A stretch of DNA of 64,000 bases from Verrucomicrobiota bacterium (GTDB lineage Bacteria; Verrucomicrobiota; Verrucomicrobiia; Opitutales; Cerasicoccaceae): NCBI GenBank assembly GCA_039818205.1, contig JBCBUK010000002.1:513863-577862 (forward strand), in the 5' to 3' direction. Shown here one piece after another: positions 4,141 to 62,901 of the stretch. Each line of letters starts with the position of its first letter. The first letter of the stretch is position 1. The notes below the pieces were generated by a model. It worked only from the letters and a program-made list of their open reading frames with translations, searched no databases and was not told the origin of the DNA. The translations under genes were made by a program, and so were the position numbers.

Positions 4141-4227
<87 letters not shown>

Positions 4228-6971: not shown

Positions 6972-8117
6972 TCAGATCACCTGAGCACCATTGCCTGTTA
7001 GTGTATGAAAGACCGATGCGGGTTGGCCAAAGCGCTCGAGGTATTCTCCCGCGATTGATTCGGCTGCAGCTTGGTCAAACTCATCGGTGGTAACTGCCAT
7101 TACTGCGCCACCAAAGCCACCACCCGTCAAACGGGCTCCCCAGACGGAGGATTCATTGTGGAGCTTGTCGACGAGGAAATCTAATTCAGCAATGCTATTC
7201 TCGAAGTCGTCGCGTGAGCTCGCATGGGACGCAAAAATGAGCCGGCCAACTTTCTCCATGTCTTTGTCTTCAAGAGCAGCTTTGACCGCGTGAACGCGGG
7301 CGCATTCGCTGACCACATGGTGGGCGCGGTGGTACAGTGCACCGCTTAATAGAATTCGGTTGTCCTCAAGGTCTTCGAGTGAGATCTCGGCGAGGCACTT
7401 AAGGTCTTTAAAGCGCGTTTGCAGATCGGCAAGTGCATCCATGCATTCACGGTGGCGCGTGGAGTAGAGGGAATCCACCAAGGCATGCTTCTTGGCGGTA
7501 TTAAAGACCCAGAAATTGACACCTTCAGGCATTCGGATGTGGCCAAAGGTTTCCGTTTGGCAGTCGATACTCACCAGGTGATGTTCTTTGCCAAAGGTGC
7601 AAACTCCTTGGTCCAAGATGCCACAGGGGACACCTACGAAATTGTTTTCTGCTCGGCGAGCGAGGCGGGCTATTGCCTGGCGATCGATTTCGAAGCCGTA
7701 AAGTTCGCAAAGGGCACAAGCGCTCGACAGTTCGAAGGCGGCACTACTACTCATCCCGGAGCCAGCTGGCAGATCGCTATCAACGGCCATGTCGAATCCA
7801 CTAGAGATTGTCATACCCGCTTTGATCAATTCATCCAGGACGCCAAGTGCGTAGTTGGCCCAGCCATCGTCGTCCGTCAAAGGTGCCAGTTCGCTCAGGC
7901 GAATTTCCACGCCACGGTGTATGGTGCCACTCCATATCCGGATAAGCTCGTCATTGCGCGGAGCCAATGCGACCGAGACGTGGCGGTTGACTGCGACACC
8001 CAAAACGGGTCCACCATTGTAGTCGGTATGGTTACCGATAAACTCAAGGCGGCCAGGTGCTTGCGCACATACCGTAGGCTCGGATCCATACTGTTTTTTG
8101 AATAGGGCCTTAATCAC
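6972..8117 (-). CDS. galK: Galactokinase (GHMP kinase)
   Basis: APGRLEFIGNHTDYNGG, PAGSGMSSSAA, CGILDQ and GARLTGGGFGG motifs. Confidence 0.92.
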   Translation of the reverse strand: MIKALFKKQYGSEPTVCAQAPGRLEFIGNHTDYNGGPVLGVAVNRHVSVALAPRNDELIRIWSGTIHRGVEIRLSELAPLTDDDGWANYALGVLDELIKAGMTISSGFDMAVDSDLPAGSGMSSSAAFELSSACALCELYGFEIDRQAIARLARRAENNFVGVPCGILDQGVCTFGKEHHLVSIDCQTETFGHIRMPEGVNFWVFNTAKKHALVDSLYSTRHRECMDALADLQTRFKDLKCLAEISLEDLEDNRILLSGALYHRAHHVVSECARVHAVKAALEDKDMEKVGRLIFASHASSRDDFENSIAELDFLVDKLHNESSVWGARLTGGGFGGAVMAVTTDEFDQAAAESIAGEYLERFGQPASVFHTLTGNGAQVI

Positions 8118-8183
8118 AATCTTATTCCTAGAGGTCAGTTTCTTGCGTGCAAAGCATTAATTTCCCGCATAATCCGCTGTCCC

Positions 8184-8213
8184 AAAAAAACCCGCGCCAA
8201 TAAGGCGCGGGTT
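8184..8213 (-). terminator. Intrinsic terminator of hup
   Basis: Stem CCCGCGCC/GGCGCGGG followed on the minus strand by a T7 run. Confidence 0.85.
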
Positions 8214-8244
8214 GGGGTAAGGAAATATATCAAAGATTGAAATA

Positions 8245-8526
8245 CTAGGATACCAACGCCTTGAGGCCGGCACCTGGCTTGAACTTTACCGTCTTCGAAG
8301 CCTTGATCTTGATCTTCTCACCAGTCTTTGGATTAACACCGATGCGAGCTGCGCGCTTAGCAACAGAGAAGGTTCCGAAACCGATGAGTTGTACACCAGC
8401 CTTGTCCTTCTTGATGCCTTTCTTTACTGCCTCCAATACCGCTTCAACTGCGCGTTCGGCAGATGCCTTAGTTGCGTCTTTGCCGAGATTCTTTTGAACT
8501 TCAATAACCAGTTCTGCTTTATTCAT
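8245..8526 (-). CDS. hup: HU DNA-binding protein
   Basis: MNKAELV...[33 protein letters not shown]. Confidence 0.97.
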
Positions 8527-9900: not shown

Positions 9901-10971
9901 ATGCAAGTATTGCCCGTGATAAACACGACCGACATCAATATCGAATCCTTCCGCGAATTGCCAACGCCGGAGGAGCTTTTGGCGTCCATTCCCAAGAACG
10001 AAGCGCAGGCCGCTTTCGTCACGGAAGCGCGCGATTCGATTCACCGCATTATCTTTGGTGATGATCCCCACTTGCTGGTCATCGTTGGGCCTTGCTCAAT
10101 TCATGACCTTGAAGCCGGTCGCGAGTATGCCCGCCGTTTGGTGGAGCTAGCTGAGGAGTTGAAGGACCGTCTATATATCGTGATGCGGGTCTATTTCGAG
10201 AAGCCTCGGACGACCGTGGGCTGGAAGGGCCTCATCATGGATCCACATTTGAATGGCTCCTACGATATCCCGGAGGGCTTGAAGATTGCCCGCAACTTTC
10301 TGCGTGAAGTTATCGACATCGGTTTGCCAACCGCGACCGAGTTGCTCGATCCCATCACACCACAATACATTGCCGACCTCATTTGCTGGACCGCCATTGG
10401 AGCGCGGACAACCGAGAGTCAAACCCACCGCCAAATGGCGTCGGGCCTTTCGATGCCTTTGGGTTTCAAGAACAGCACGGACGGTAGCATTGAAGCTGCG
10501 ATCAATGCGATCAAGGCCGCGAGCCAGCAACAGACTTTCCTCGGAATCGCGGCTAACGGTCGGGCCTCGGCAGTCACTACCAAGGGTAATCCAAATTGTC
10601 ACCTCGTTCTCCGTGGTGGCAAAGCCGGGCCAAATTACTCGGCTGAGCACGTCGGCGACTATGCGAAACTCCTAGAGAGCAAAGGACTGATTCCGGCAGT
10701 TATGGTTGACTGTGCGCATGACAATAGTGGTAAAGATCCCGCCAAGTCTCCCGCAATTTTGGCGGAGGCGACCCAGCAGATTCTTGATGGCAACAATGCG
10801 ATGATTGGTGCGATGATCGAGAGCAACATCAATGCTGGGAATCAAAAATTTCCCCAGCCTTTGGATGAACTGAAATATGGTGTCTCGATCACGGATCCAT
10901 GCCTGAACTGGGAAGACACGCAGACCGCTTTGCGCGAGACTTACGAAAAGCTGGCTCCTCGCTTTGCTTAG
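9901..10971 (+). CDS. aroG: DAHP synthase, class I-alpha (AroF/G/H type)
   Basis: GPCSIHD, RVYFEKPRTTVGWKG, IGARTTESQTHR, GFKN and YGVSITDPC. Confidence 0.95.
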   Translation: MQVLPVINTTDINIESFRELPTPEELLASIPKNEAQAAFVTEARDSIHRIIFGDDPHLLVIVGPCSIHDLEAGREYARRLVELAEELKDRLYIVMRVYFEKPRTTVGWKGLIMDPHLNGSYDIPEGLKIARNFLREVIDIGLPTATELLDPITPQYIADLICWTAIGARTTESQTHRQMASGLSMPLGFKNSTDGSIEAAINAIKAASQQQTFLGIAANGRASAVTTKGNPNCHLVLRGGKAGPNYSAEHVGDYAKLLESKGLIPAVMVDCAHDNSGKDPAKSPAILAEATQQILDGNNAMIGAMIESNINAGNQKFPQPLDELKYGVSITDPCLNWEDTQTALRETYEKLAPRFA

Positions 10972-12716
10972 TCGTAGAACGACCAGATCGCATCATGTAG
11001 GTGACGAAGTGCCTGGCCAGTTTGTGGGCCGGGCACGTTGAGCAGCTGGCTATCCACGACTGCAATCTGATCGTTTTTAACGGCTGAAAGCTCACGCCAA
11101 ATCGGATCGCTTTGTAACTGGGCAATGACATCAGCACGCGCGAGTTCGGCGCCAGCTTCCATTGAGTGGGTCACTACAATGACATCTGGGTCCGCCTCGA
11201 TGACGGACTCGCGGGACAACTTGGGCCACAAACCTTGCGCATCCCCAGCAACGTTTTCAGCGCCAGCGAGAGTGATTAGGCTGTCAGCATAGCTATTGGG
11301 TCCGGCGGCGAAATCCAGCCGGGGGCTCAATGCGTAGAGGATTCGTGGCACACGATCGCGATTCTCGACCGATGCCTGAACCGCTTCGCGATCGGCTGTT
11401 AGGGAGCCAACTACTTCTTGAGCGAGATCCGTGCTTCCCAGTGCGTCACTCAGGGTGTTGGCATCGCGGAGAATTCCGTCGTAGCCGTCGTGGTTGCAGA
11501 CCAACACATCGAGGCCGAGTTCTCGCAAGCGTTCAACATGGCGTCGGTCAGCAATGTCTGCGGTAATGATCAAGTCTGGCGCTGCGGCGAGGATCAATTC
11601 GTAGGATGGATTTGGGTACACCGCGTAGCGCGCAACTGCATTGGACGATTCGCCAACTTCGCAATGCTCGGTGACTCCAACTAATCGATCTTCCACCCCG
11701 AGGGCATGCATCCATTGCGTCGTGCTTGGAGCCAGGGAGATAACTCGCATTGGAGTGGAGTGAAGTGTGGTGGCGTCGCCCCGTCCGTCGGTTAGGGTTT
11801 TGGGGTAGTCGGATTGATTGGCTTGGGGCGTCTTTTCCGACTCACTAATGGGGTCGATGATCACCGAAACCGTTTGCCCAACTCGCAGTTGAATGTCGGA
11901 TGGAATGTTGTGCGGTTTGATCCGAACGGGAAATCGTTGAGCCAATCGAACCCAGTCAACGGTGGGCTTTACTATGGGTAGTTGAGTATTCTGGTTGCTC
12001 GAGCCATCTTCGCGGTAAATGCCCCAGCTGACGCTTTCAACCTCTCCGTGAAAGGGTTCAAAGAAGTCCCCCATCATGATAATCCGGACGCGATCACCGG
12101 GCTGGATCGCCGCGAGATCGGTCTCTTTGAAGTAGGCGGAGATCCAAAATGAGTTTGCGTCGACGAGCGCCATCAGCGCCTGGCCAGTGGTCACATAGGT
12201 GCCTGTGGTCACTTCCAGGTTTGTGATGTATCCGCTCACTGGAGCATTGATCTTGGTGTAGCTCAGGTTGAGATTGGCCAATTCGAGCTCGGCTTCGTCG
12301 ACCGCGATATCGGCAACGGCCTCAACGTATTGGGCCTCCAGCGATTGAAACTCTTCAAGTGATATCAGCTCTTGTGCTACGAGGTCGCGCCGCCGTTCCA
12401 CTTCCAACTTGAGGTTTGCCGCAACGGTTTTCGATCGCTGCAAGGCGGCCTCGGTTCGGTGAACAGCTTTCTCGTAGTCGGTTGGATCGATTTCAAATAG
12501 CGGATCACCAACCTCGACCCATTGGTTATCCTTAACGTAAACCTCGACCATTGGGCCATCGACGCGAGCCGCAATGCCAACGACATAGGCGCGAACCTGT
12601 CCATCGCGAGTCCAGGGGTGTTCGTTGTAGAGGTCGTAAAAACGCCAGCATAGCAGTGCCGCGAAGGCGACCGCGATTAGTGTAAACACAACCTTGAGTA
12701 GCCGGGCGAATTTCAT
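10968..12716 (-). CDS. Fusion of AaeA/HlyD-family membrane-fusion protein and BtuF-like (Peripla_BP_2) substrate-binding domain
   Basis: Start MKFARLL at 12716 (ATGA overlap with the upstream gene). N-terminal half: PWTRDGQVRA, WVRLAQRFPVRI. C-terminal half: YPKTLTDGRG, RVISLAPSTT, ELILAAAPDLII, LSRESVIEADPDVI, LSAVKNDQI, PGP. Confidence 0.85.
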   Translation of the reverse strand: MKFARLLKVVFTLIAVAFAALLCWRFYDLYNEHPWTRDGQVRAYVVGIAARVDGPMVEVYVKDNQWVEVGDPLFEIDPTDYEKAVHRTEAALQRSKTVAANLKLEVERRRDLVAQELISLEEFQSLEAQYVEAVADIAVDEAELELANLNLSYTKINAPVSGYITNLEVTTGTYVTTGQALMALVDANSFWISAYFKETDLAAIQPGDRVRIIMMGDFFEPFHGEVESVSWGIYREDGSSNQNTQLPIVKPTVDWVRLAQRFPVRIKPHNIPSDIQLRVGQTVSVIIDPISESEKTPQANQSDYPKTLTDGRGDATTLHSTPMRVISLAPSTTQWMHALGVEDRLVGVTEHCEVGESSNAVARYAVYPNPSYELILAAAPDLIITADIADRRHVERLRELGLDVLVCNHDGYDGILRDANTLSDALGSTDLAQEVVGSLTADREAVQASVENRDRVPRILYALSPRLDFAAGPNSYADSLITLAGAENVAGDAQGLWPKLSRESVIEADPDVIVVTHSMEAGAELARADVIAQLQSDPIWRELSAVKNDQIAVVDSQLLNVPGPQTGQALRHLHDAIWSFYD

Positions 12717-12937
12717 CGTGGAAATAAAATGAGTCCCAAGCCAGCGCTGCAGGCGACCATAAGTGAAAAGAGGAATAGCGGTGGATGCCAAACGAACCGG
12801 GTTAGACCGACCATGTCCATCATCCAGGCGACCGCCCAAGCTAACAGGAACCCACCCGTAACAATCACCAACACAAAGGGTAAATAGAATCCCAGCACGT
12901 CGATCTCGGGGTCCAGGTAGGGGCCGTGGTCAAACAA
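12713..12937 (-). CDS. DUF1656 / AaeX-like small membrane protein (start uncertain, 12937 or 13012)
   Basis: EIDVLGFYLP...RFVWHPPLF motif; stop overlaps the start of the adaptor gene. Confidence 0.82.
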   Translation of the reverse strand: MFDHGPYLDPEIDVLGFYLPFVLVIVTGGFLLAWAVAWMMDMVGLTRFVWHPPLFLFSLMVACSAGLGLILFPR

Positions 12938-13068
12938 TGCGAGGGGGAGGGCGGCGCAAGAAAAACGCCGGATGTCTGTCTTTTCAAAAAACTTTGCCAA
13001 GAAGCGACCCATCAACGCCTTGTGATTGCAAAGATTTCTTCTAGAGATGACAATCTTCTTTCGAGGCC

Positions 13069-15285
13069 ATGCTGAGTCCAGCTCAACTGCAATTGCTGAC
13101 TGCATTTAAGACGGCGCTCGCCGTCATCATTGCCCTGGGTATCGCCATGGCGCTCAACTGGGAGCGCCCCTATTGGACGGGGATTACGGCAATGATCGTG
13201 TTCTTGCCCTACGTGGGCGCCGCGCTGGAGAAGTGTTTGCTACGGATCTTGGGGACCGTTGCGGCCGGCGTCGGCGCGTATTTGTTGACTGGTTTTTTTG
13301 AGCAGGAACAATTTTGGATGACAATTGCCTTGTTCGTGCTGCTTGTTGGAACTGGCTATGGGGCAATGGGGAAGGTCTATCCTTATTTCTTTATGCTGGG
13401 TGGAATCACCCTGTGCATTATCGTTGGCCAAACGGTTGAGTATCCCGAGCGCCTCTGGCACCTCGTCCTCTACCGAACGCTGGAGGTCGGTCTCGGAGTG
13501 GTGGTCGCGATGGCGGTAAATAGTTTAGTTTTCCCACAGCGAGCATCAAACGCTTTGCGTCACAAAGTTTCAGAGACTTTGACAGATTGCCGTGACTTAA
13601 TGCTTATTGCTGCCGAGCACTACATGGATGATGCGCCGTTACCAGAAGGTCTCGATGATAAAGAGCAAAAAATTGCCGCTAAGTTCCCGGGGCTCGTTGC
13701 GCTCATGAACTCCGCCCTGCGTGATAGTAGTCGATTGCTCAACCATCAACGCGCGGCTGAAGAGATGATCCGTGAGACGCGGCAGTGTTTCGTGGCCACC
13801 GTGACGAGCCTGCGAGCGTCGGCCAGTGAGGTGCAACGGAAGTTGCAAAGCGAAATGAAAGACGAGTTGCGATCCTATGTCGATGCGCTACTCAAGGATC
13901 TCAACCACGTGATCGACGATCTGAGCGCCGATCGTCCCGTTCGCAAGTTAGTTGATTGCCATGAGGCGAGAGACGCTTTGGAATCCAAAGTTATTCAGTT
14001 GCGAGCGTCGGGAAAGACTTTCAGCTATCCGCTGGAAGATGTTTCGAACTTCTTCGCTTTTATTGGTGATCTAGACTCCTTGCGCGAAGCGATGGTTCGA
14101 TTGGCGGTTGCTGATCGAACGCTCTATCGCGATGTCGAGGCCAGTGAGATGCCAGATCGTGTCGTATGCGAGCCCCGCGAATGGCGAATGGATATTCGCC
14201 GATTGCAACACGGCATTAAGGTTGGGATTGCCTGCTTGGTCTCATTGTATGCCTACCTCTGGTTGCAGTGGCCCTCGGGGGCGACAGCTTTTGTTACCGC
14301 TGCAATTGTGATTCAGGTTTCAATTTCCGCGAGCAATCACAAATCGATGCTACGCCTGGGCGGGTGCTTGCTGGGGGGCGTCTGCGGTGCCTTTACCCTG
14401 GGTTTCCTGGAAAGCCATTTCGAAACCTACGAGGCCTACGCGATCCCGCTGTTCGCAATATTTTTTCTCTTCGCGTGGATCAACAATGGTCCGCAGAAGT
14501 ATGCCTATGCGGGATTTCAGGCGCATTTGGCTTTTCTCCTGATGACAACGATTTCACCTGAGCAAAGTGTTGATCTAGAGGCCGGTTTTCAGCGTTTCAT
14601 GGGGATTCTACTGGGGGTCTTTATTGCGGCCGTTGTGCAGCGCCTGATTTGGCCCGTGATTCCGGAGCGAGAATTTCGGCATGACATTGCTCTATTTTTT
14701 GAGCGAGGCACCACATTTTTGCATGATCAAGACGCCCGAATTGCCCACCAGCAAACGGAAGGAGAAGCCCGGGATCAGGAGAAGGAGTTGGCCGGCATCG
14801 AGTATCTGCCAGCGAAGACACTTGATTGGTTAGGTCAGATTGGTTTCACGGATCGAGAGGAGGAAGAAAAGCACCAATTCACGCAGACGTTTCTTCATGT
14901 GCAATCGATTGCATTCGCACTGCGAGGCATGGCGCAGGCCAACGCTCGACAGCTCCACCCAGAAGTCCTAGCGGGAATCAAGGACGAGCTCGTTACCTTG
15001 GATCATGCCTTGGCGGATGCGTTGGACCGGTGCCACGCTGCATTTGTTGATAACGAGCGCTTCGAGGCAGGAGCGGGCCTGCATGATGCCGTTCTAAAGC
15101 TGGAAGCTCGGCTGACGGAGCTTTCCCGCGTAAAGCACGCAACTCGCGCTCTGACCGGTCAGGAACTTGGTAGTTTCCTGGCGCTCGTTCGCCGTTATCG
15201 CGAATTGACCTCTCTCATTTCCGCCTGCGAAAAACATACCGCGCAACTGAACTTCAAAGCCCTTGAGCGCACCGAGTTTTTCTAG
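13069..15285 (+). CDS. FUSC / AaeB-like aromatic acid exporter inner-membrane subunit
   Basis: FKTALAVIIALGIA..LNWERPYW, RILGTVAAG, and a second TM bundle with WLQWPSGATA and RLGGCLLG. Confidence 0.88.
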   Translation: MLSPAQLQLLTAFKTALAVIIALGIAMALNWERPYWTGITAMIVFLPYVGAALEKCLLRILGTVAAGVGAYLLTGFFEQEQFWMTIALFVLLVGTGYGAMGKVYPYFFMLGGITLCIIVGQTVEYPERLWHLVLYRTLEVGLGVVVAMAVNSLVFPQRASNALRHKVSETLTDCRDLMLIAAEHYMDDAPLPEGLDDKEQKIAAKFPGLVALMNSALRDSSRLLNHQRAAEEMIRETRQCFVATVTSLRASASEVQRKLQSEMKDELRSYVDALLKDLNHVIDDLSADRPVRKLVDCHEARDALESKVIQLRASGKTFSYPLEDVSNFFAFIGDLDSLREAMVRLAVADRTLYRDVEASEMPDRVVCEPREWRMDIRRLQHGIKVGIACLVSLYAYLWLQWPSGATAFVTAAIVIQVSISASNHKSMLRLGGCLLGGVCGAFTLGFLESHFETYEAYAIPLFAIFFLFAWINNGPQKYAYAGFQAHLAFLLMTTISPEQSVDLEAGFQRFMGILLGVFIAAVVQRLIWPVIPEREFRHDIALFFERGTTFLHDQDARIAHQQTEGEARDQEKELAGIEYLPAKTLDWLGQIGFTDREEEEKHQFTQTFLHVQSIAFALRGMAQANARQLHPEVLAGIKDELVTLDHALADALDRCHAAFVDNERFEAGAGLHDAVLKLEARLTELSRVKHATRALTGQELGSFLALVRRYRELTSLISACEKHTAQLNFKALERTEFF

Positions 15286-36453: not shown

Positions 36454-37545
36454 CTATTGGCTCGCGCGGTACTTTGTGAGGATCGCATCCCAAGCTGGGC
36501 TTTGGATGAACTCCAGCAGCTCAAGGTCAATTTCCCGTTGATTCACTTGTTCTAGCGGCATGGCGAGCGCCAGGAACGTGGGCTCAAAGGTGTCGGTCAG
36601 CACATCGATCTCTCCCGCGAAGTCTTTGCCGGCCCAATAAGAGATCAACGCGTGGTCGTTAACGAATGCGGAGATCTCGCTGTCGGAAACGGCTCGGAGC
36701 CCGTCGGGAATCGTTTCGAAGTATTGCGGGTAAACTCCAATCGCCTTGAGGTAGTGGTCAGCCACTGAGTCCTCGATTGTCCCAACCCGCACGCGTATGA
36801 GATCTTGTGGTCCTTTGACCTTGGGCGTAAGACTGCCAACGGTGAGCGCAGTCGCGATGGCTCCGGTGAGGCCCGAAATGATTACAATCGAGGTGAACAT
36901 CCAGACCAGTCCAATCAATCGACCGCCAAGGGTTACGGGTGCCTTGTCTCCGTAGCCAACGGTTGTCATCGTTACGGCAGACCACCAAAAGGCGGCACCA
37001 AGCCCATGGGCGGTGTTTCCACCAAAGTGTTCGGCATTTCGTTTCCGCTCGAAGAGCCATACCATGAGTCCGGCCAGCAAGAGGACGACGAGCAGGGCTA
37101 GTAGCGCTTTGATAAAGTTCCAATTGAGTAGGCGACTGAACAGCTCGGTCCAGATGTTCTGTTTGGTGTAGGCGGTCGCGATTCCCAGCGAGGACCCGTA
37201 GTAGGTGTGGGTAAAACTCATGGCCTTCGCGCGGTCTGCCGTTACCGAAATCGCTGCGGCCCCGATGTTTGCTTCGCCGGTTTGAACAGCACCCAAGACT
37301 CCGACGAGGTCATACTCCCGGTACTCGTAGTCGTAGCCTAGTTCATTGGCGATGCCTTCCCACAGATCGATCGTGATCCCGGTCCACTTGCCGTCTGGGT
37401 CCTTGAATGCGAAGGGCGGTGTGTCCTTGGTGGCCACAATCATGGGGCCTGCCGAGGCGCCATTGTTAGCGGTTGCGGAACTCGATTGAGCAAGCAATAG
37501 GTAAGGGCAAACGCAGGCTAAGGCAATGAGCAGAAGCTGTTTCAT
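36454..37545 (-). CDS. GluR0-like ligand-gated K+ channel (split PBP domain plus K+ pore)
   Basis: Signal peptide, S1 (PPFAF, GITIDLW, ISVTADR), TM1, [17 protein letters not shown] selectivity filter, TM2, then the S2 lobe. Confidence 0.9.
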
Positions 37546-37591
37546 AGGTAGACTATTGAAACGTGTATGGACGCGAATTCAATGCCAGGAT

Positions 37592-38236
37592 TTAGGAGCG
37601 ATTGAGTTTTCGCACCAGATCAGCTCCCAGGATGTTTTGAAACGCGGCTCGCAGTTCTGGATGTTTGGGGAGAAAGGTTCGCAGGGTTTCAAAGCTCCAG
37701 CATACATGCCGTGTTTTTGATAGTGCGATCACATCTGCGCAGGCCGTTTTGCCCGTCAGATAGCTCATCTCGCCGACGAAGTGTCCGGCCGATAGCTTGG
37801 CCAGCTCTTTGTCGTTGCGGCGGACCGAGAGCTCGCCCTCGTAGATGACGATGACGCGATCGATCGCACTGTCCTCTGATACGATGATGCCTTCCTTATC
37901 TGCTTCGCTCCACTCACCCAGTTCAAGAAGCTTACGGAAATTACTTGGCGATAAACGGTCAAAAACCAACTGGTAAAGTTTGAGGTCATCGCCTTTCAAA
38001 TGCACCGGCCGTCGATCCAGAATCAGGACGGTGGACTGGACGATGTTGATCGTAATAAATACGACATTCCAGATGATGGGTTCCCAAAGTGGTTCTGGTT
38101 GGAGAAAGTAATAGGGAAGGAGCGAGGTTCCCGCAATGATCGTGAAGATCCGCAACCAAAGGATGTCGCGAACCAGGTAGGAGACCAGGTACAACAGATA
38201 GGCGGCATGGACCAGGTAGGGAAGTAGTGAGCTCAT
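37592..38236 (-). CDS. Popeye-domain (cNMP-binding) membrane protein
   Basis: Three TMs (SYLVRDILWLR, WNVVFITINIVQ), LYQLVF, then a cNMP domain with GHFVGEMSYLT..ACADV. Confidence 0.85.
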   Translation of the reverse strand: MSSLLPYLVHAAYLLYLVSYLVRDILWLRIFTIIAGTSLLPYYFLQPEPLWEPIIWNVVFITINIVQSTVLILDRRPVHLKGDDLKLYQLVFDRLSPSNFRKLLELGEWSEADKEGIIVSEDSAIDRVIVIYEGELSVRRNDKELAKLSAGHFVGEMSYLTGKTACADVIALSKTRHVCWSFETLRTFLPKHPELRAAFQNILGADLVRKLNRS

Positions 38237-52337: not shown

Positions 52338-53735
52338 ATGATCAGTATCTTCTGGAATGTTAGGGGTTTACGTGCGCTTGGCGCTTTTGGCCTCGTCGCG
52401 GCGTTAGGCCTCGTCGGGTGTTATCCTGAGCCCATCAAGCCGAAAGGCCCGCCCCCGCGGACCGTCACCGCAAATGAGGTGACCACCGGCGATGTGCCAT
52501 TGTATAGCGACACTCTGGGACGGGCTACGGCCTTGGAATCGGTGAACATTGTTAGCCAGGTCGACGGGCAGATTGTCGGGGTTCATTTTTCGCAAGGCGA
52601 AAAGCTGGAGGAAGGCGATTTGATGTATACGATCTATCAGCCACCGTACATCGCGGCGGTTGAAGAGGCCGAAGGGCAGTTGGAACAGGCCCAAGCCCAA
52701 CTGGCGATCGATGAGTTGGAGCTTGAGCGCAGCCGACCATTGGTGCCCGAACAGTTGATCTCGGAACAAGATTTCCAAGCTTTGGAAGCCAAAGTGGAAG
52801 AAGATCGTGGCGCCGTTCGCGAGGCGGAGGGGCAGTTGTTGGCCGCACAGGTCAATCTTGGCTACACAGAGATTCGTTCACCCGTGAGCGGGATGGCTGG
52901 TATCTACTTGGTGAATGTCGGCAATGTGGTTTCGGCTGCCGAAGGGCAGACCTTGACGACCGTTCTGAAAATGGACCCGATCTACGTCGATTTCATTTCG
53001 CCCGAGGCACAGTTTGACCAGATTCGCGAGTATTTCCACAAGGCGGGTGGCGAGTTGAAGATCCGCGCGAGCTACCTATCCGATACATCAAAATTTCGCT
53101 ACGGCGACATGACTATCCTCGGCAACGAAGTGGATACTGAAACCGGTACAGTCAACCTACGGGCGACGATGGATAATGCGGATGAGTTCTTGTGGCCGAA
53201 CCAGCCTTTGGCGATTCGGGTTATCATGGACACGTTAAAGGACGCACTATTGGCCCCGGCGAGTTGCGTTGGGGTAGGGCAGAACGGCCATTTCGTGTTC
53301 GTGATCGATGAGGACAAGAACACCGTGACCCAGCAGAACGTTAAGGTTGGTCAGCGGCAGGATGACGGAACCATCGTCATCAAGAGTGGTGTCAAGAAGG
53401 GCGATAAGCTTGTCGGTGAAGGTCTCGATTTCCTCCGCACGGGAACGGTGATCGTGGTTAGCGACGGCAATCCGGCGGACATCAAATTGCCGATGAAGAT
53501 GATTCAACCAGTCATCGATCTCCTACAGAAATACAAGAAGGCCACCCCGGCGCAGATCAAGAAGATCAAGGACAGCCGTCGACTTCCGCCAGAGCTTTTG
53601 AAGAAGTTGTATGAGCACCATGCGATTACTCAGAAAGAAGAAGAGTTTCTCCTGAATCTGGAAACTGGTAGTATCACCGGTGAGCCGCCCAAGGACGCCA
53701 AGCCAGCGGATTCCAAAGAGTCCGGCAGCAAATAA
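52338..53735 (+). CDS. RND efflux periplasmic adaptor (MdtA-like lipoprotein)
   Basis: Lipobox LVGC, SQVDGQI, NLGYTEIRSPVSG, NEVDTETGTV and LWPNQ. Confidence 0.92.
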   Translation: MISIFWNVRGLRALGAFGLVAALGLVGCYPEPIKPKGPPPRTVTANEVTTGDVPLYSDTLGRATALESVNIVSQVDGQIVGVHFSQGEKLEEGDLMYTIYQPPYIAAVEEAEGQLEQAQAQLAIDELELERSRPLVPEQLISEQDFQALEAKVEEDRGAVREAEGQLLAAQVNLGYTEIRSPVSGMAGIYLVNVGNVVSAAEGQTLTTVLKMDPIYVDFISPEAQFDQIREYFHKAGGELKIRASYLSDTSKFRYGDMTILGNEVDTETGTVNLRATMDNADEFLWPNQPLAIRVIMDTLKDALLAPASCVGVGQNGHFVFVIDEDKNTVTQQNVKVGQRQDDGTIVIKSGVKKGDKLVGEGLDFLRTGTVIVVSDGNPADIKLPMKMIQPVIDLLQKYKKATPAQIKKIKDSRRLPPELLKKLYEHHAITQKEEEFLLNLETGSITGEPPKDAKPADSKESGSK

Positions 53736-53753
53736 CCAGACGCCGCACCTGTT

Positions 53754-56700
53754 ATGGCTTCCCTGTCCGACCCATTTGTAAAACGCCCGGTGATGACCCT
53801 GCTCCTCGCCTTGTCGGTGGCGGCGTTTGGCGTCTGGTCCTATCTGACCTTGCCCGTGAGCGACTTGCCGAATGTGGACTATCCGGTCATTCAGGTTCAG
53901 GCGAGCTATCCGGGTGCCAGTCCGCAGATCATGGCCTCGAACGTGGCTTCACCGTTGGAGCAACAGTTTCTTCAGATCCAGGGCATTGAGCTGATCACCT
54001 CGCAGAACACACAAGGTAGCAGCACGATCGTTCTACAATTTGATTTAAGTAAAAGTATTGATGCCGCGGCAACCGATGTACAATCGGCGATTACACGGGC
54101 GCAAGGGGATTTGCCGACTGATCTTCCGAGCCCGCCAACCTATACGAAAACGAATCCGAATGCCCAGCCGGTTATTTATATTGGCTTGGTATCAACCTCG
54201 ATGACCGAGGGCGACATTTATGATTATGCGTTTACCCAGGTTGCGCAGCGGCTCCAGATCATCAATGGCGTTTCTACGGTCGATGTATACGGTTCGAAAC
54301 GAGCGGTGGCGATCCAGCTAAACCCAAACGAGCTTTATAATCGCGGCCTGACCTTTGACCAGGTTACTGAAGCCGTTCAGCAAGGGACGAACTCCCTCGG
54401 AGCGGGTGAGTTCAAGGGGAATTCGATTAATTACACGATCCAACCGAATACTCAGTTGGACACGCCTGAGCAATACGATGACTTGATCATCGCGGTTAAG
54501 GATAGCCGTCCAATCTATCTGCGAGATATCGGCAGTGCGGTTGAAAGCATCGAGATGGAAGACCTGTCCTTGGACTACTGGTCTGATTTGGTCCCGCCCA
54601 ATGCGGCCGGAGTGGTGCTCGCCGTGCAAAAGGCTGATGGCGCCAACGACGTGAAGATAGCCGATGCGGTGAAGGCCATGTTGCCGGAGCTACAGGAGCA
54701 GATTCCACAGTCTATTGTCATGAGCATTATCCATGATCGCTCGAAGACGATTGTGGCTTCGGTCGACGACGTGGAAGAAACTTTGGTGATCGCCTTCGTC
54801 CTGGTGTGCGGAACGATCTTCCTCTTTCTTGGGCGCGCCCGGGATACGATCATCCCGATGGTGGCATTGCCGATGGCCTTGCTGTTGACCTTCACGGTCA
54901 TGAAGCTCTTGGGCTACACGCTCGATAACCTGTCGTTGATGGCGTTGACCCTCTCGATTGGCTTCCTGGTTGATGACGCGGTGGTGTTCCTGGAGAACAT
55001 GGTCCGCCGGATGGAGGACTATGGTGAGGACCCGATGACCGCCACCTTGAAGGGAGCGAAGGAAATCAGTTTTACCATTCTGTCGATGACACTTTCCCTG
55101 GCCGCGGTGTTTATTCCGTTGGTCTTTATGGGTGGATTGATGGGCCGCATTTTCCGGGAGTTTGGCATCACAATCACGGTAGCGGTTATCATGTCCGGGA
55201 TTGTGTCGCTCTCGCTGACACCGTTGATGTGCGCCCGCATGCTGAAGTCGCATTCGGAAGACGATGAGACCTTCATGCAGAAGGTTTCGAACCGCCTTGA
55301 AAAGGCTTGTTTGAATTTGTACGACCCGTCGTTGCGTTTCTTCCTGAAGCACAAATGGATTTCCGCGCTGACCTGGTTCGCCTGTATGGGTGGTGTCGTC
55401 TGGTTTGGTATTCTGGTTCCGAAAACCTTCATCCCACTTGGCGATAGCGGTTTTATTCAAGGGGTGTTCGTGGCCGATACCGGTGCCTCGGGCGATGACC
55501 TCAAGCGCTACCAGAAACAAATCAAAGCGGTCATGAAGGAGAATCCGTACATCGACAACTTCGTGACGGTTGCCGGGGTAAACGGGATTCCCGGGGCGCA
55601 GAGTAATTACATCCTGACCTTTATTTCGCTGATCGATGTTGAGAAGCGTCCAGGGATCGTTGAAGTAAATGATGGACTGCAGGCCGCGTTGCTTGAAATT
55701 CCGGGAATTTTGCCCGCGATACAGCCACAGCCCTCGCTGCAAATTTCCACGGGTGCCACGTCGACCCAATTGGGTAACTACGCTTACAGTCTCTCCGGTT
55801 TGGACGCCGATGACGTCTATCGAATTGCCGAGGAGCTCGTCGGCGCGATGCAAGGAAGTGGCTATTTCTCTTCCGTTCGCAGTGACCTGTTTTTGAGCAA
55901 TCCGCAGATCGAGCTGGAGCTGTGGCGGCCCTTGGGGAGCGCATACGGTGTCACGGCGACGAACTTTGCTACGGTCCTCAAGGACGCCTATTCGCTCAAT
56001 TACAGCTATTTGATCAAGTCGCCGTTTCAGCAATACCAGGTCATTGTTGAGGCATCCCCAGAGTGGCGGGCGAATCCCGACAACATCAAGAGCCTGTATT
56101 TTCAGTCGGCATTCAACCAGAGCGAATTATTCATCAACAATTCGACCGTGTTCGATATCGAGAACAACCTTGTGCCCTTTGGTTCGATCGCGACCTATCG
56201 GGAAGATGTTGGCCCGCTCGCGGTGAACCATATCAACAACTTTAGCTCGGTAACGATCTACTACAACATCAAGGAAGGGAAGGCGATCGGCGACGCCAAC
56301 AACTTCGTGAAGCAGAAGATGTCGGAGATCTCGAACCCGTCGGTGCAGACTAGTTTTCAGGGACAGTCGCTAATGTTTGAGGAGACTATCATTAGCATGA
56401 GCTTAATGGCGATCGTGGCGATCTTCGTGATGTATGTGATCCTCGGTATCCTCTACGAGAGCTGGGTCCACCCGGTCACGGTTCTGAGTGCCTTGCCGGT
56501 TGCGGTCGTTGGCGGCCTGGCCACCTTGTTAATATTGCGCCAAGAGCTCTCGCTCTACGCTGGTATTGGGATGTTCATGCTGATGGGTATCGTGAAGAAG
56601 AATGGAATCATGATGATCGACTTCGCGATCATGCGGCAAGACGAAGGTATGACACCGATCGACGCCGTACACGAAGCCTGCATGGAGCGCTTCCGGCCGA

Positions 56701-56942
56701 TCATTATGACAACGGCCGCAGCCTTGCTCGGTGCGGTTCCAATTGCGTTGGGATGGGGTGCTGATGCGGCTGCCCGGATGCCCTTGGGGTCTTCGATTGT
56801 CGGAGGTTTGATTGTGTCGCAGTTGATTACGCTCTACGTCACCCCAGCATTGTATTTGTATTTTGAATGGTTTGAGAAACACGTTACGGACAAGATTCCA
56901 CTCTTGCAGCGAGGGGAGCGCGCTAAAGCCAGTGTTGATTAA
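53754..56942 (+). CDS. RND efflux permease (MdtB/MdtC-like)
   Basis: RPVMT, LPVSDLPNVDYP, GFLVDDAVVFLEN, GIVKKNGIMMIDFA and RFRPIIMTT. Confidence 0.95.
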   Translation: MASLSDPFVKRPVMTLLLALSVAAFGVWSYLTLPVSDLPNVDYPVIQVQASYPGASPQIMASNVASPLEQQFLQIQGIELITSQNTQGSSTIVLQFDLSKSIDAAATDVQSAITRAQGDLPTDLPSPPTYTKTNPNAQPVIYIGLVSTSMTEGDIYDYAFTQVAQRLQIINGVSTVDVYGSKRAVAIQLNPNELYNRGLTFDQVTEAVQQGTNSLGAGEFKGNSINYTIQPNTQLDTPEQYDDLIIAVKDSRPIYLRDIGSAVESIEMEDLSLDYWSDLVPPNAAGVVLAVQKADGANDVKIADAVKAMLPELQEQIPQSIVMSIIHDRSKTIVASVDDVEETLVIAFVLVCGTIFLFLGRARDTIIPMVALPMALLLTFTVMKLLGYTLDNLSLMALTLSIGFLVDDAVVFLENMVRRMEDYGEDPMTATLKGAKEISFTILSMTLSLAAVFIPLVFMGGLMGRIFREFGITITVAVIMSGIVSLSLTPLMCARMLKSHSEDDETFMQKVSNRLEKACLNLYDPSLRFFLKHKWISALTWFACMGGVVWFGILVPKTFIPLGDSGFIQGVFVADTGASGDDLKRYQKQIKAVMKENPYIDNFVTVAGVNGIPGAQSNYILTFISLIDVEKRPGIVEVNDGLQAALLEIPGILPAIQPQPSLQISTGATSTQLGNYAYSLSGLDADDVYRIAEELVGAMQGSGYFSSVRSDLFLSNPQIELELWRPLGSAYGVTATNFATVLKDAYSLNYSYLIKSPFQQYQVIVEASPEWRANPDNIKSLYFQSAFNQSELFINNSTVFDIENNLVPFGSIATYREDVGPLAVNHINNFSSVTIYYNIKEGKAIGDANNFVKQKMSEISNPSVQTSFQGQSLMFEETIISMSLMAIVAIFVMYVILGILYESWVHPVTVLSALPVAVVGGLATLLILRQELSLYAGIGMFMLMGIVKKNGIMMIDFAIMRQDEGMTPIDAVHEACMERFRPIIMTTAAALLGAVPIALGWGADAAARMPLGSSIVGGLIVSQLITLYVTPALYLYFEWFEKHVTDKIPLLQRGERAKASVD

Positions 56943-56952
56943 TTTGCGTCAG

Positions 56953-58467
56953 ATGCGTCAGGAACAAGTGACCGCGAGAACGATTCGTGGCTGGTTGGTA
57001 TTGCCTGCAATACTGGTCTCGTTGATCGCGATCAGCGGATGTGTTGATGTGAACGAGGAGGTTTCGCAGCGCCCCAGTGAGCTCTGGCGCCCACCGCCCG
57101 CGGCCTTGCGCGATACGCCAAAGACTAACAACCCAGGTACCGATGTGGTTGATTTCGTTGCGGGTCAGGATCCTTATTACACAACCGCGGGTGGCTCCTA
57201 TGCCGGCAGTCCAGTGGCTGCCGTGGGCCTGCCCAAGATGGATCTGCCCGGCCTGGTCGATATTGCGCTGTCAAACAACCCAGTGACTCGCAGCCAGTGG
57301 TTCCTGGCTCGTGCCCGCGCCTCGCAGTACGGGCAGAGTTTGAGCGAGTACTATCCGTGGATCACGGTGAGTGCGACCGTCGAGCGCGAGAAGACGAAGA
57401 ACCTGAGTGCAGTCGGGACTAATTGGAACACTCAGTATGGACCGTCACTCGACCTCAACTGGTTGCTCTTCAACTTTGGAGCGCGCGAAGCCACTGCCAG
57501 CGCTGCACGGGAAGCTTTGTTCTCAGCGAATTTCACCTACAATCAGTTCTATCAGGACTTGGTCCGTGATGTCTTGCAGGAGTATTACACGTTATGGGCA
57601 GCTGAGGCGAATCTCGAGGCCTCACGCACAGCATTGAAGAATGCCGAGGCCACCTATGATGCGGCCCAGAAACGCTTGGACTCCGGGCTGGGGAATAAGC
57701 AAGATGCGTTGCGGGCGCTTGCAGATGTGAAAACGGCGGAGACGCAGATTGAGAAGGACATTGCCGCGATTGAGGAGTCGCGGGCGGATCTCGCTACGGT
57801 CCTCGGAATCGAGGTGAGTTCTCAGTTGCAGATTGAGCACCCAGAGGAATTTCCAGAGTTTGATAGCTTGGATTCTGACGTGAGCCGGTTGATGGCAGAG
57901 GCCATGCAGAATCGTCCAAATCTCCTTTCATCCTATGCCGACGTTCGAGAAACCGAATACAATTTGGATGCTGCCCGCGCAGAGCTGTGGCCCGAGATTA
58001 ACGCTACGCTCTCCATGGATTATCGGGAAATTACCGGTAGCAATGCCAGCCCGGTTAACGATTATGTCGCAGGGCTAACCCTGGAATGGGACATCTTTCA
58101 GGGTTTCAACAAATGGTATGAAATTGACCGCCGTCGCGACCTGGCACGCCGTGCCCAGCAGGATGCCCGGCTGTCGGAGCTTCAAGTCCTTAAGCAAGTT
58201 TGGACGGCCTATTTTGGCTACCGTTCGGCTTTGCGTCAGGTTGAATCTGCTTCTGCTGCTCTGGACGCGCAGCAGGAAGCCTATGACGCAATCGCAATTG
58301 GTTATCAAACTGGCATCAATAGCTTGTTGGATATCCTCACGTCTCAGGAAGACCTTGACGACTCCCGTCGCGACTTGATTGAGGCTCGTACTAATTTGGG
58401 GACTTCGATAGCAGACCTAGCCCGAGCCACGGGGAATTTACCGATTTTAACCCGCGGCCAGCGATAG
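56953..58467 (+). CDS. TolC-family outer-membrane efflux lipoprotein
   Basis: Start ~56953; lipobox ISGC and two OEP repeats (ALSNNP..YYPWI; NRPNL..LWPEI). Confidence 0.9.
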   Translation: MRQEQVTARTIRGWLVLPAILVSLIAISGCVDVNEEVSQRPSELWRPPPAALRDTPKTNNPGTDVVDFVAGQDPYYTTAGGSYAGSPVAAVGLPKMDLPGLVDIALSNNPVTRSQWFLARARASQYGQSLSEYYPWITVSATVEREKTKNLSAVGTNWNTQYGPSLDLNWLLFNFGAREATASAAREALFSANFTYNQFYQDLVRDVLQEYYTLWAAEANLEASRTALKNAEATYDAAQKRLDSGLGNKQDALRALADVKTAETQIEKDIAAIEESRADLATVLGIEVSSQLQIEHPEEFPEFDSLDSDVSRLMAEAMQNRPNLLSSYADVRETEYNLDAARAELWPEINATLSMDYREITGSNASPVNDYVAGLTLEWDIFQGFNKWYEIDRRRDLARRAQQDARLSELQVLKQVWTAYFGYRSALRQVESASAALDAQQEAYDAIAIGYQTGINSLLDILTSQEDLDDSRRDLIEARTNLGTSIADLARATGNLPILTRGQR

Positions 58468-60506: not shown

Positions 60507-62654
60507 CTATCGTTTTCGCCAAAAGCTGACTTCTACTTGATTGTGCTCATAGCAACGAGCGTTGCGTCGAATGACTTGCGGAATGTGCAGCGATTCGCCG
60601 CTGTTGGTGAAGTGCTCCTCTAGAGCGATTGCAAGCCCATCAAGGGTCGTTTGGTTTTCTCCGGTGCGGTCTTTGAATCCCCCAAGCCAATTCTCTTTTC
60701 GGGTATGTTCTTCCCGCCAGTCGTTTGTCGAAGCGACGACAAGCAGTCCTCCTTCGTTCAAGCGCTCATGCACGGTTTTGAGGAATTTTGCGGGATCGTA
60801 AGAACGCTCTAAGAGGCAGTTGATTAGGATTAGATCATATCCACTGTAGAGTTCCTTCATGTTGGAGAGGTCCGCTTGCATGAACTCGACTTTGCTTCGA
60901 GCGTTGTCGAGTCCGATGTCTTTCAAATGAGCCTGACGGAAGTCGACGATGTCTCCTTCGGAAGGTATTTCCCACTGGGTATAGCCTTTGTCAATCATCT
61001 CGACACCAATGCGGATGGTTCGCGCGGTTGGGTCGAGGCCGAGAACCGTCTCAAAACCAGCCGCGAGTTCGAATGAAGTTCGACCAACTTTACATCCGAT
61101 TTCCAGCGCGGATCCACGAGTCGATTTCGCCATGCGATCTAAACAGATTTGCGCGATGCGTTCCGAATAGTTTTCGACGTTGAGCGCCTCAGGGCCGTAG
61201 TGCGATTCGCAATAGGGCGTAACAAAGGGGTCGGTCTCGTAGCGGTCGTCTTTGATTGCAACTTCGAATCCGCTTTCGATGTAGCGAAAACCGGCATGCT
61301 GGTAAAAGTGACGACGGAATGCGTAGCGGCTATCTCGAGTGGTTTCGTTTCCAGTTGAGATCCAAGAGCCTCCTTTGATTAGGTTATGCTTGGTATCGAA
61401 TGTGGGCGTTGAGAAATCATCGTAGAGCGGATGAACACCAAAGCCTAGGAAGCCGGCGATTGGTGTCTCCGTGTGTTGCCACACGTTGCCCATGACATCG
61501 AAGAAGCCCTCACCGAACTCGTAGCGATTTACTGGGGTTGAAGATGCGCAAACTTCCAGGTTGATGTTGCCCGGCGCACCATCTGCCCATTGCTCAACAT
61601 CGGGAGTCTTCGTGAAATCGAGTAGGCGATACCACTCTTCTTCACTTGGAAGGCGTATCGACTTGCCGGTTTTTTCGCTCAACCAGTTGCAGTAGGCTTT
61701 CGCCTCAAGATAATTAACCTCAGCGGGCCAAGACCATGGCATGTCCACTTCTTTGAGCATGTTTCGGAGTGCGAAAGATCCGTCTTCGCGCTTACGCCAG
61801 AAACGTGGCATTCCGTGCTTGTCATACTGGGCCCAATGCCAGCCTTCGTCGGTCCAAAATCGTTCAGTATTGTAGCCGTCATCATCGACAAAGGCCTTGA
61901 ACTCCTGGTTGCTAACGAGGAACTTAGATGCCTTGAACGGTGCAACCGATTCTTCGTGCTGCCCGTACTCGTTGTCCCAACCATAGAAAGCGCTAGGCTG
62001 CTGTTTGCCCAGGACGACATCGCCGCCAGTTACTTCGATCAACTCGTTTTTCGGCGGCGTGGAATCTTCTTCGCAAACGTTCCACGATGGATGCTCTCGC
62101 TCGAGGAGGTCCAGTGGGAGTTGACGAATTAGGACGGAGGACGTCTCCAGGTGGATGCGTTCGTGCTCAATGCCCATCATGATGATCCAGTACAGGCTGT
62201 TCCACTGAACGGGTAGTTCGAGCGGTGTTTCGTCAATGAGCTTGTTAATCGTAGCGCGGACCTTGTCACGATACGCCTTCACCACTTGGTGGTCAGGCCA
62301 AACGTAGTGCGCTTCGTTGAGATCGTCCCAGCTCATTTCATCAACGCCGATAGCGCAAAGTGATTCCAAGTGGGGGTCGATGCGTTGCTTCAGGAACTTT
62401 CCGAGAACCAACTTGTTGATAAAAAATACCGCAGTATGGCCGTAATAGAAAATCAGCGGATGGCGGAGCGGATCGGCACGAGTAACGTAGGCCTTCTGGC
62501 CAATCATCGGCTCAAACAGTTTTTCGTAGATATCAAATGTTTGGTGAAAGTAGCGGCGAATCTCCTCGCGCTTTTCCTCTGGCGTTCCCTCAATGAGGTT
62601 AATAGTCAGTGGCGTCTCGATTCCATCGAGCAAGGATTGGCTGGCGGTTGGCAT
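60507..62654 (-). CDS. ovoA: 5-histidylcysteine sulfoxide synthase / methyltransferase (ovothiol biosynthesis)
   Basis: LRHPLIFYYGHTA, IGVDEMSWDD, EHERIHLETSSVLIRQLP iron motif, FGE-sulfatase domain (YGWDNEYG, RYAFRRHFYQHAGFRY) and a C-terminal SAM methyltransferase (EIGCKVGR, WLGG). Confidence 0.94.
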   Translation of the reverse strand: MPTASQSLLDGIETPLTINLIEGTPEEKREEIRRYFHQTFDIYEKLFEPMIGQKAYVTRADPLRHPLIFYYGHTAVFFINKLVLGKFLKQRIDPHLESLCAIGVDEMSWDDLNEAHYVWPDHQVVKAYRDKVRATINKLIDETPLELPVQWNSLYWIIMMGIEHERIHLETSSVLIRQLPLDLLEREHPSWNVCEEDSTPPKNELIEVTGGDVVLGKQQPSAFYGWDNEYGQHEESVAPFKASKFLVSNQEFKAFVDDDGYNTERFWTDEGWHWAQYDKHGMPRFWRKREDGSFALRNMLKEVDMPWSWPAEVNYLEAKAYCNWLSEKTGKSIRLPSEEEWYRLLDFTKTPDVEQWADGAPGNINLEVCASSTPVNRYEFGEGFFDVMGNVWQHTETPIAGFLGFGVHPLYDDFSTPTFDTKHNLIKGGSWISTGNETTRDSRYAFRRHFYQHAGFRYIESGFEVAIKDDRYETDPFVTPYCESHYGPEALNVENYSERIAQICLDRMAKSTRGSALEIGCKVGRTSFELAAGFETVLGLDPTARTIRIGVEMIDKGYTQWEIPSEGDIVDFRQAHLKDIGLDNARSKVEFMQADLSNMKELYSGYDLILINCLLERSYDPAKFLKTVHERLNEGGLLVVASTNDWREEHTRKENWLGGFKDRTGENQTTLDGLAIALEEHFTNSGESLHIPQVIRRNARCYEHNQVEVSFWRKR

Positions 62655-62825: not shown

Positions 62826-62901
<76 letters not shown>

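Follow-up and report, generated by a model that had tools for sequence, protein, structure and literature searches.

The 64,000-nucleotide stretch of Verrucomicrobiota contig JBCBUK010000002.1 analyzed here (hereafter, the window) carries on its reverse strand, at 10968..12716, a fused gene for a 582-residue protein that joins an AaeA-like periplasmic adaptor, the partner of a FUSC-family exporter, to a BtuF-like class III substrate-binding domain, a component of ATP-binding cassette (ABC) importers. From its distribution across genomes we conclude that the fusion is real, that it is old within its family (Cerasicoccaceae) and that, in the data searched, it is limited to that family. The covalent union of these two known parts appears to be undescribed, as the full-text literature searched, with few subscription papers and no supplements, yielded no report of it. 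At the same time, this is probably not a new kind of pump. The model we favor, and consider moderately probable, is one wherein the adaptor anchor exports and tethers a BtuF-like vitamin B12-binding domain, which docks on a shared HmuUV-type importer, while the adaptor serves its FUSC exporter independently. An earlier note, made from the sequence of the window, had proposed an undescribed system in which the binding domain serves the FUSC pump; the architecture it reported is indeed real, conserved and undescribed in the literature searched, but the pump-feeding mechanism finds no support in the evidence below.

Translation of window positions 12716-10968 (reverse strand) gives a single stop-free reading frame, and Pfam and NCBIfam profiles bear out the order of parts that the note had read from the sequence, an adaptor, a linker (SESEKTPQANQSD) and a class III binding domain. 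The N-terminal membrane anchor helix (aa 1-32, 12621..12716; residues 2-32 in the AlphaFold2 model) is the sole hydrophobic segment, with 19-residue hydropathy windows starting at aa 1-11 exceeding 1.6 and the best window beyond aa 40 reaching 1.24; the binding domain thus lacks an export signal of its own, as the note had also said. The adaptor body (aa 33-289, 11850..12620) contains lipoyl halves, an alpha-hairpin and the AaeA beta-barrel (PF25963), which together with the N-terminal transmembrane helix define an adaptor of the AaeA/MdtN type. HlyD-type Pfam domains span aa 46-282, the RND_mfp subfamily score lies above its threshold (127 versus 94.9 bits), and Foldseek matches the body to EmrA, AcrA and MexA; the NCBIfam AaeA match (aa 8-297) scores 201 bits, below its equivalog cut-off of 400. 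Beyond the flexible linker (aa 290-302, 11811..11849), the class III domain (aa 303-582, 10971..11810) is recognized by Peripla_BP_2 (aa 325-557, E 3e-29, 102 bits against a cut-off of 27.5), by a backbone helix at residues 429-450 and by its Foldseek matches. Its NCBIfam BtuF match (aa 318-520) scores 76 bits against an equivalog cut-off of 234, and for this reason we class the domain as working like BtuF, and not as the enterobacterial BtuF itself. AlphaFold2, run on an 18-sequence alignment, returned two confident modules (mean pLDDT 79.7, pTM 0.49) on either side of a disordered joint (pLDDT below 50 at aa 290-301), consistent with adaptor and binding domain having no fixed relative orientation. 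The linker is not conserved, and in 18 relatives between 49 and 94 residues separate the motifs on either side of it. We considered and rejected separate initiation of the binding domain from an internal start, since the methionine in question, M323, is not conserved and lacks a preceding signal sequence.

The family set comprises 16 genomes, the window's own being G000 and other G numbers denoting the Opitutales genomes compared with it. The reading frame is continuous across the junction in 12 of the 16 (that of the window and 11 others), representing four genera, and the fused proteins are 46-71% identical over their full length where one match spans it. In G015 a single frame change interrupts the linker, and the FUSC gene on the same contig is also broken, while G006, G007 and G011 have the binding domain alone, with an N-terminal signal or anchor region of its own. 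A search of 401 genomes of the order, in which scoring covered the top three candidates from each genome, found full-length matches in this family and none in the 385 other genomes. Protein searches of several sources yielded 19 clusters with both domains, one of the 150 best representatives (of 1.84 billion) spans both halves, and a search of the ESM Atlas returned unfused adaptors only. Other long AaeA-like proteins were set aside, having low-complexity extensions or being FUSC-AaeA fusions, none with a binding domain; single-chain FUSC-AaeA fusions of 960 residues (P0144-P0146) occur in metagenomes. In phylogenetic trees the fused adaptor halves form one clade (SH support 96), with the unfused adaptors of G016, G101 and G173 as its sister group. 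The fused binding halves fall into two groups with unfused proteins among them, though their monophyly is not rejected (approximately unbiased test, p-AU 0.265) in a test on 35 of 67 rows that omitted long branches, near-duplicates, non-Opitutales rows and 8 of the 11 HmuT sequences. Two histories would be compatible with these trees, one fusion followed by later fissions, or several fusions.

The case for B12 as the likeliest cargo is built from the genomic neighbors of the clade, the pocket aromatics, a tyrosine that is missing, the fold and the apparent needs of the organism. The binding domain falls within an Opitutales clade separate from the HmuT paralogs. Among 23 stand-alone orthologs in this clade, 15 have at least one of three kinds of neighbor no farther than 6 kb away, namely a TonB receptor, a DUF4465 gene or an unknown co-travelling gene (two of the 15 qualify only through the last), and the same cut-off gives 0 of 11 for HmuT loci. 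G026 has a complete DUF4465-receptor-binding protein-ATPase-permease cluster that includes one clade member, orthologs of the neighboring receptor lie behind cobalamin riboswitches in G039 and G036, and in G017 a riboswitch lies upstream of DUF4465 and a receptor. DUF4465 proteins bind B12, one from Coraliomargarita being among those studied (PMC13398666). Two fusion carriers, G008 and G010, possess a DUF4465 and receptor locus without a binding protein, and HmuT and the fusion are their only class III proteins. The BtuF pocket is lined by the aromatics Y50, W66, W85, F162, F168 and W196 (PMC5269720), and four of these six positions (Y50, W66, F168 and W196, mapped by alignment and spacing) are aromatic in 24 of 24 fused copies when histidine is counted, the 24 including two near-duplicate pairs and G015. 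W497 and C352 are invariant in the fused binding domain. Conversely, the tyrosine that precedes the first docking glutamate in HmuT (position 366), which we take to be the heme ligand, occurs in 10 of 11 HmuT proteins and in none of the 24 fused copies. Among the Foldseek matches listed, the lowest root-mean-square deviations are to BtuF (1n4a, 2.4 Å; 5ysc, 2.6 Å). Finally, G000, at 99.97% completeness, has MetH and no match to MetE or CobS, and so appears to need imported B12. The co-travelling family itself, which has no Pfam match (7510-8442 of locus L039; 7550-8884 of L073), stands beside DUF4465, TonB receptors and a BtuF-like gene at 7 of the 23 loci, and is a candidate for a new B12-uptake accessory protein; in G000 a distant homologue is encoded opposite genes that resemble those for biotin synthesis.

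The docking residues and the available permease suggest how such cargo might enter the cell. The two BtuF glutamates that form salt bridges to permease arginines (PMC3741162, where they are residues 74 and 202; by a count from W66 the first would be 72) correspond in the alignment to E373 and E503. Both are present in all 24 fused copies, the other 14 glutamate positions being kept in at most 17, such that 2 of 16 are invariant. A FecCD search at E<=1e-30 gave a single match in every one of the 16 family genomes. The permease of G000 lies in hmuTUV on another contig (C7), retains the RLPR arginine motif and clusters with three orphan permeases, from G016, G020 and G021 (SH 91, FastTree). In seven genomes that are at least 90% complete (G016, G021, G025, G026, G027, G031 and G039), there is one permease and the clade member is the sole class III protein. 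Moreover, ABC genes lie within 6 kb of only 2 of the 23 stand-alone orthologs; distance from the permease is the normal state for this BtuF-like clade. The earlier note was correct that no ABC permease or ATPase is nearby, since there is none among the 35 window open reading frames scanned with Pfam (shorter frames being only partly covered) and a genome-wide FecCD search gave no match on the window's contig. As for the permease locus (L048, 8450-14522), hmuTUV, divergent from hmuS, is followed by two predicted secreted proteins, and no TonB receptor is among the open reading frames listed for this 20-kb locus. The binding domain is under purifying selection, with a ratio of nonsynonymous to synonymous substitution rates (dN/dS) of 0.16-0.38 in four unsaturated pairs from genus g5 (most other pairs are saturated), compared with 0.14-0.34 for FUSC and about 0.1 for the adaptor.

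A general pathway can thus be outlined. The N-terminal helix would anchor the protein, with both domains in the periplasm, and the adaptor half, together with the divergent FUSC protein and a TolC-like channel encoded at an unlinked site, would still form an ordinary exporter of the AaeXAB kind. Both the terminal beta-barrel strand of the predicted structure and known adaptor structures suggest that the adaptor C-terminus lies near the inner membrane; there, on its flexible linker, the binding domain would capture a corrinoid, dock through E373 and E503 on the permease it shares with HmuT, and pass its cargo to the only ABC importer of the HmuUV/BtuCD type in the genome, whose genes lie elsewhere. 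The fusion would have persisted by replacing the domain's own anchor or signal peptide, leaving the export and B12-binding jobs co-expressed and yet mechanically independent. Here P0149, a 307-residue protein that nests within the fused clade of Cerasicoccus (SH 98), is of interest. Its adaptor is nearly gone, a 16-residue hydrophobic, signal-peptide-like N-terminal stub and one short AaeA remnant being all that precedes the binding domain. Two further stand-alone proteins also fall among the fused lineages.

Several observations weigh against this model. The W85 equivalent is non-aromatic in all 24 fused copies, and the F162 equivalent is not aromatic either; the best Foldseek E-value belongs to a heme binder, 2r7a. 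No BtuB-like receptor, DUF4465 gene or cobalamin riboswitch was found in G000, whose two TonB receptors are large and have no match to the BtuB-like queries, and genera g1 and g5, with 11 genomes between them, gave no BtuB-like match, leaving the entry of B12 across the outer membrane unexplained in these genera. At the fused locus we likewise found no linkage to btuB, a B12-binding gene or a cobalamin riboswitch; four weak riboswitch matches in g5 genomes were discarded, being under the cut-off and upstream of an unrelated membrane gene. A MetE-type match occurs in 7 of 15 relatives, so the need for B12 is not uniform. Both docking glutamates are also present in 11 of 11 HmuT proteins, and part of their role may be structural. 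The sole permease of G000 belongs to a heme operon that has an HmuT of its own, for which reason we can only infer that it is shared, and G029 (93% complete) has the domain and no FecCD match. P0149, represented by one protein on one contig of 2,491 bp, is suggestive only. Lastly, that the fusion has been kept in four genera might mean that coupling confers a real advantage.

Consider, then, the alternative that the tethering and ABC docking are as we propose, with a cargo other than B12, perhaps a siderophore, a heme derivative or a nickel or cobalt chelate, taken up through the shared permease. The missing receptor and riboswitch in G000, the location of the permease within a heme operon and the low BtuF equivalog score are all in its favor, as are the best sequence and fold matches, which mix B12, heme and iron binders. 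Nonetheless, the clade's neighbors are B12-uptake genes, the heme role already has its HmuT, whose Tyr 366 the fused copies lack, and G000 appears to require imported B12, and we regard a different cargo as unlikely.

A second alternative couples the tethered domain to the FUSC pump, such that it loads, gates or recaptures a corrinoid or metal chelate. The conservation of the fusion and the lack of ABC genes nearby both favor coupling, and a divergent FUSC gene adjoins 10 of the 12 intact fusions (there is none within 20 kb in G010, and the G004 contig is too short). On the other hand, the divergent FUSC-aaeX-aaeA cassette also occurs in G016, there with no binding domain attached, and thus the pump does not need it. 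Nor does the domain seem to depend on the pump, as FUSC was found in none of five carriers of the clade domain tested, two of them about 80% complete. The invariant ABC docking glutamates and the variable linker span also argue against coupling, and the characterized AaeXAB system exports aromatic carboxylic acids (PMC9301823). Prediction of a complex between aa 303-582 and FUSC aa 1-715 gave an ipSAE of 0.00 in two runs without controls, which is evidence neither way. With the domain present in five carriers where no FUSC was found, its docking glutamates kept and a suitable permease elsewhere, we consider it quite improbable that the binding domain serves the FUSC pump.

A third possibility is that the adaptor places the domain under a TolC-like channel, providing an outer-membrane entry for corrinoids in lineages that have lost BtuB. 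This would account for the missing BtuB-like matches in g1 and g5, and G000, which seems to need B12, has 16 OEP matches at 8 loci. TolC-type channels rest closed, however; in G008 and G010 the fusion coexists with a DUF4465 and receptor locus, BtuB-like matches are missing from G006 and G007 too, where the domain is unfused, and P0149 has lost the adaptor body, all of which makes such a route very improbable. Taking load, gate or recapture at a FUSC/TolC-like conduit together with BtuB-independent entry, in a hybrid model wherein an adaptor ring positions several corrinoid-binding domains at the foot of that conduit, we retain a small probability for it, because the long retention of the fusion leaves room for coupling. 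There is also only a very slim chance that the binding domain is the decaying passenger of an accidental read-through fusion: it does evolve 2-3 times faster than the adaptor half, and one genome is frameshifted at the linker, but its dN/dS is similar to that of FUSC, its pocket and docking residues are invariant, and the frameshifted contig has a broken FUSC gene too. An assembly chimera or strain-specific deletion, which the earlier note had named as grounds for refutation, has nothing in its favor and is refuted by independent assemblies, given the continuous frame in 11 other genomes and the 19 sequence clusters from several sources, and we give it practically no credence. Among the sequencing runs listed, none from RNA contained the locus; a contig from the one DNA run that did spans the junction without differences as well, although that run may be the window's source and is not independent.

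Comparison with known systems places the fusion between two familiar machines. Like BtuF of Escherichia coli (1N2Z/1N4A) and Vibrio cholerae (5YSC), the fused domain has the class III fold (TM-score by target 0.84-0.87), both docking glutamates and, as mapped by alignment and spacing, aromatics at four of the six pocket positions, and its clade orthologs adjoin B12-uptake genes. Unlike BtuF, it has no signal peptide of its own and is C-terminal to an efflux adaptor, it lacks aromatics at the W85 and F162 equivalents and scores under the NCBIfam cut-off, and no dedicated btuCD or btuB was found in G000. With AaeXAB of E. coli and other FUSC-family exporters the cassette shares the trio of DUF1656 protein, AaeA-type adaptor and FUSC protein; here, however, FUSC is divergent instead of downstream, no LysR regulator lies between the genes, the adaptor bears an extra 290-residue tail, and scores fall below the AaeA and AaeB equivalog cut-offs. 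HmuTUV of G000 supplies a binding protein of the same class together with the proposed partners, permease and ATPase, but HmuT forms a separate clade, is about 25-28% identical to the fused domain and has the tyrosine that the latter is missing. Other tethered or multi-domain class III proteins seen among the matches (lipoproteins, transmembrane-anchored, tandem and PGF-CTERM forms) likewise have a covalent membrane anchor, whereas the anchor here is the complete, conserved adaptor of an unrelated exporter.

The remaining genes of the cassette were identified by Pfam. An aaeX-like gene for a small membrane protein (DUF1656; 12713..13012, reverse strand) overlaps the start of the fused gene by 4 nt, and the divergent gene at 13069..15285 (forward strand) encodes a 738-residue FUSC/AaeB-family inner-membrane exporter, the only FUSC match in the genome, which scores 43 bits against the NCBIfam AaeB equivalog cut-off of 870. 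FUSC and the aaeX-fusion pair thus stand head-to-head across a 56-bp spacer (13013..13068), in which an eight-genome alignment reveals conserved ATTGTC and TG..A.A.GCG motifs; a short spacer with both motifs, and no regulator gene, is kept at loci L021, L022, L023, L024, L027, L028 and L031. The spacer likely contains back-to-back or overlapping divergent promoters with short leaders, to judge from this conservation, though a sigma-70 promoter and terminator scan found no consensus match in it, a result at chance level. No cobalamin riboswitch or other regulatory RNA was found in the window, and none in eight ortholog loci. The end of the fused gene overlaps the stop of a convergent DAHP synthase gene by 4 nt (10968-10971), but a link between the two was rejected because the downstream neighbors differ in most relatives. 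About 40 kb away, at 52338-58467 (forward strand), is a complete resistance-nodulation-division (RND) adaptor-pump-outer membrane channel operon, whose channel might partner the adaptor, as might several others. Elsewhere in the window, a ligand-gated ion-channel-like gene (36454-38236, reverse strand; SBP_bac_3, Lig_chan and Ion_trans_2), which presumably resembles GluR0, lies directly downstream of a POPDC/cyclic nucleotide-binding gene. A protein encoded at 60507-62654 (reverse strand) combines FGE-sulfatase and methyltransferase domains, an architecture that we take to be that of the ovothiol synthase OvoA. There is one rRNA operon with two spacer tRNAs (23360-28734), and further tRNAs lie at 4144-4227 and 62826-62898.

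If the hybrid model were to prove correct, the fusion would represent a new transport architecture and the first binding-protein-assisted FUSC transporter. If instead the tethering model that we favor is true, the family provides a natural case of an importer's binding protein borrowing the adaptor of an exporter as its anchor. In that case these proteins, annotated only as efflux adaptors, likely hide the family's B12-binding protein. Two questions also become testable in the named and cultured species of Cerasicoccus and Rubellicoccus: how B12 passes the outer membrane where BtuB was not found, and whether heme and B12 share one HmuUV-type permease.

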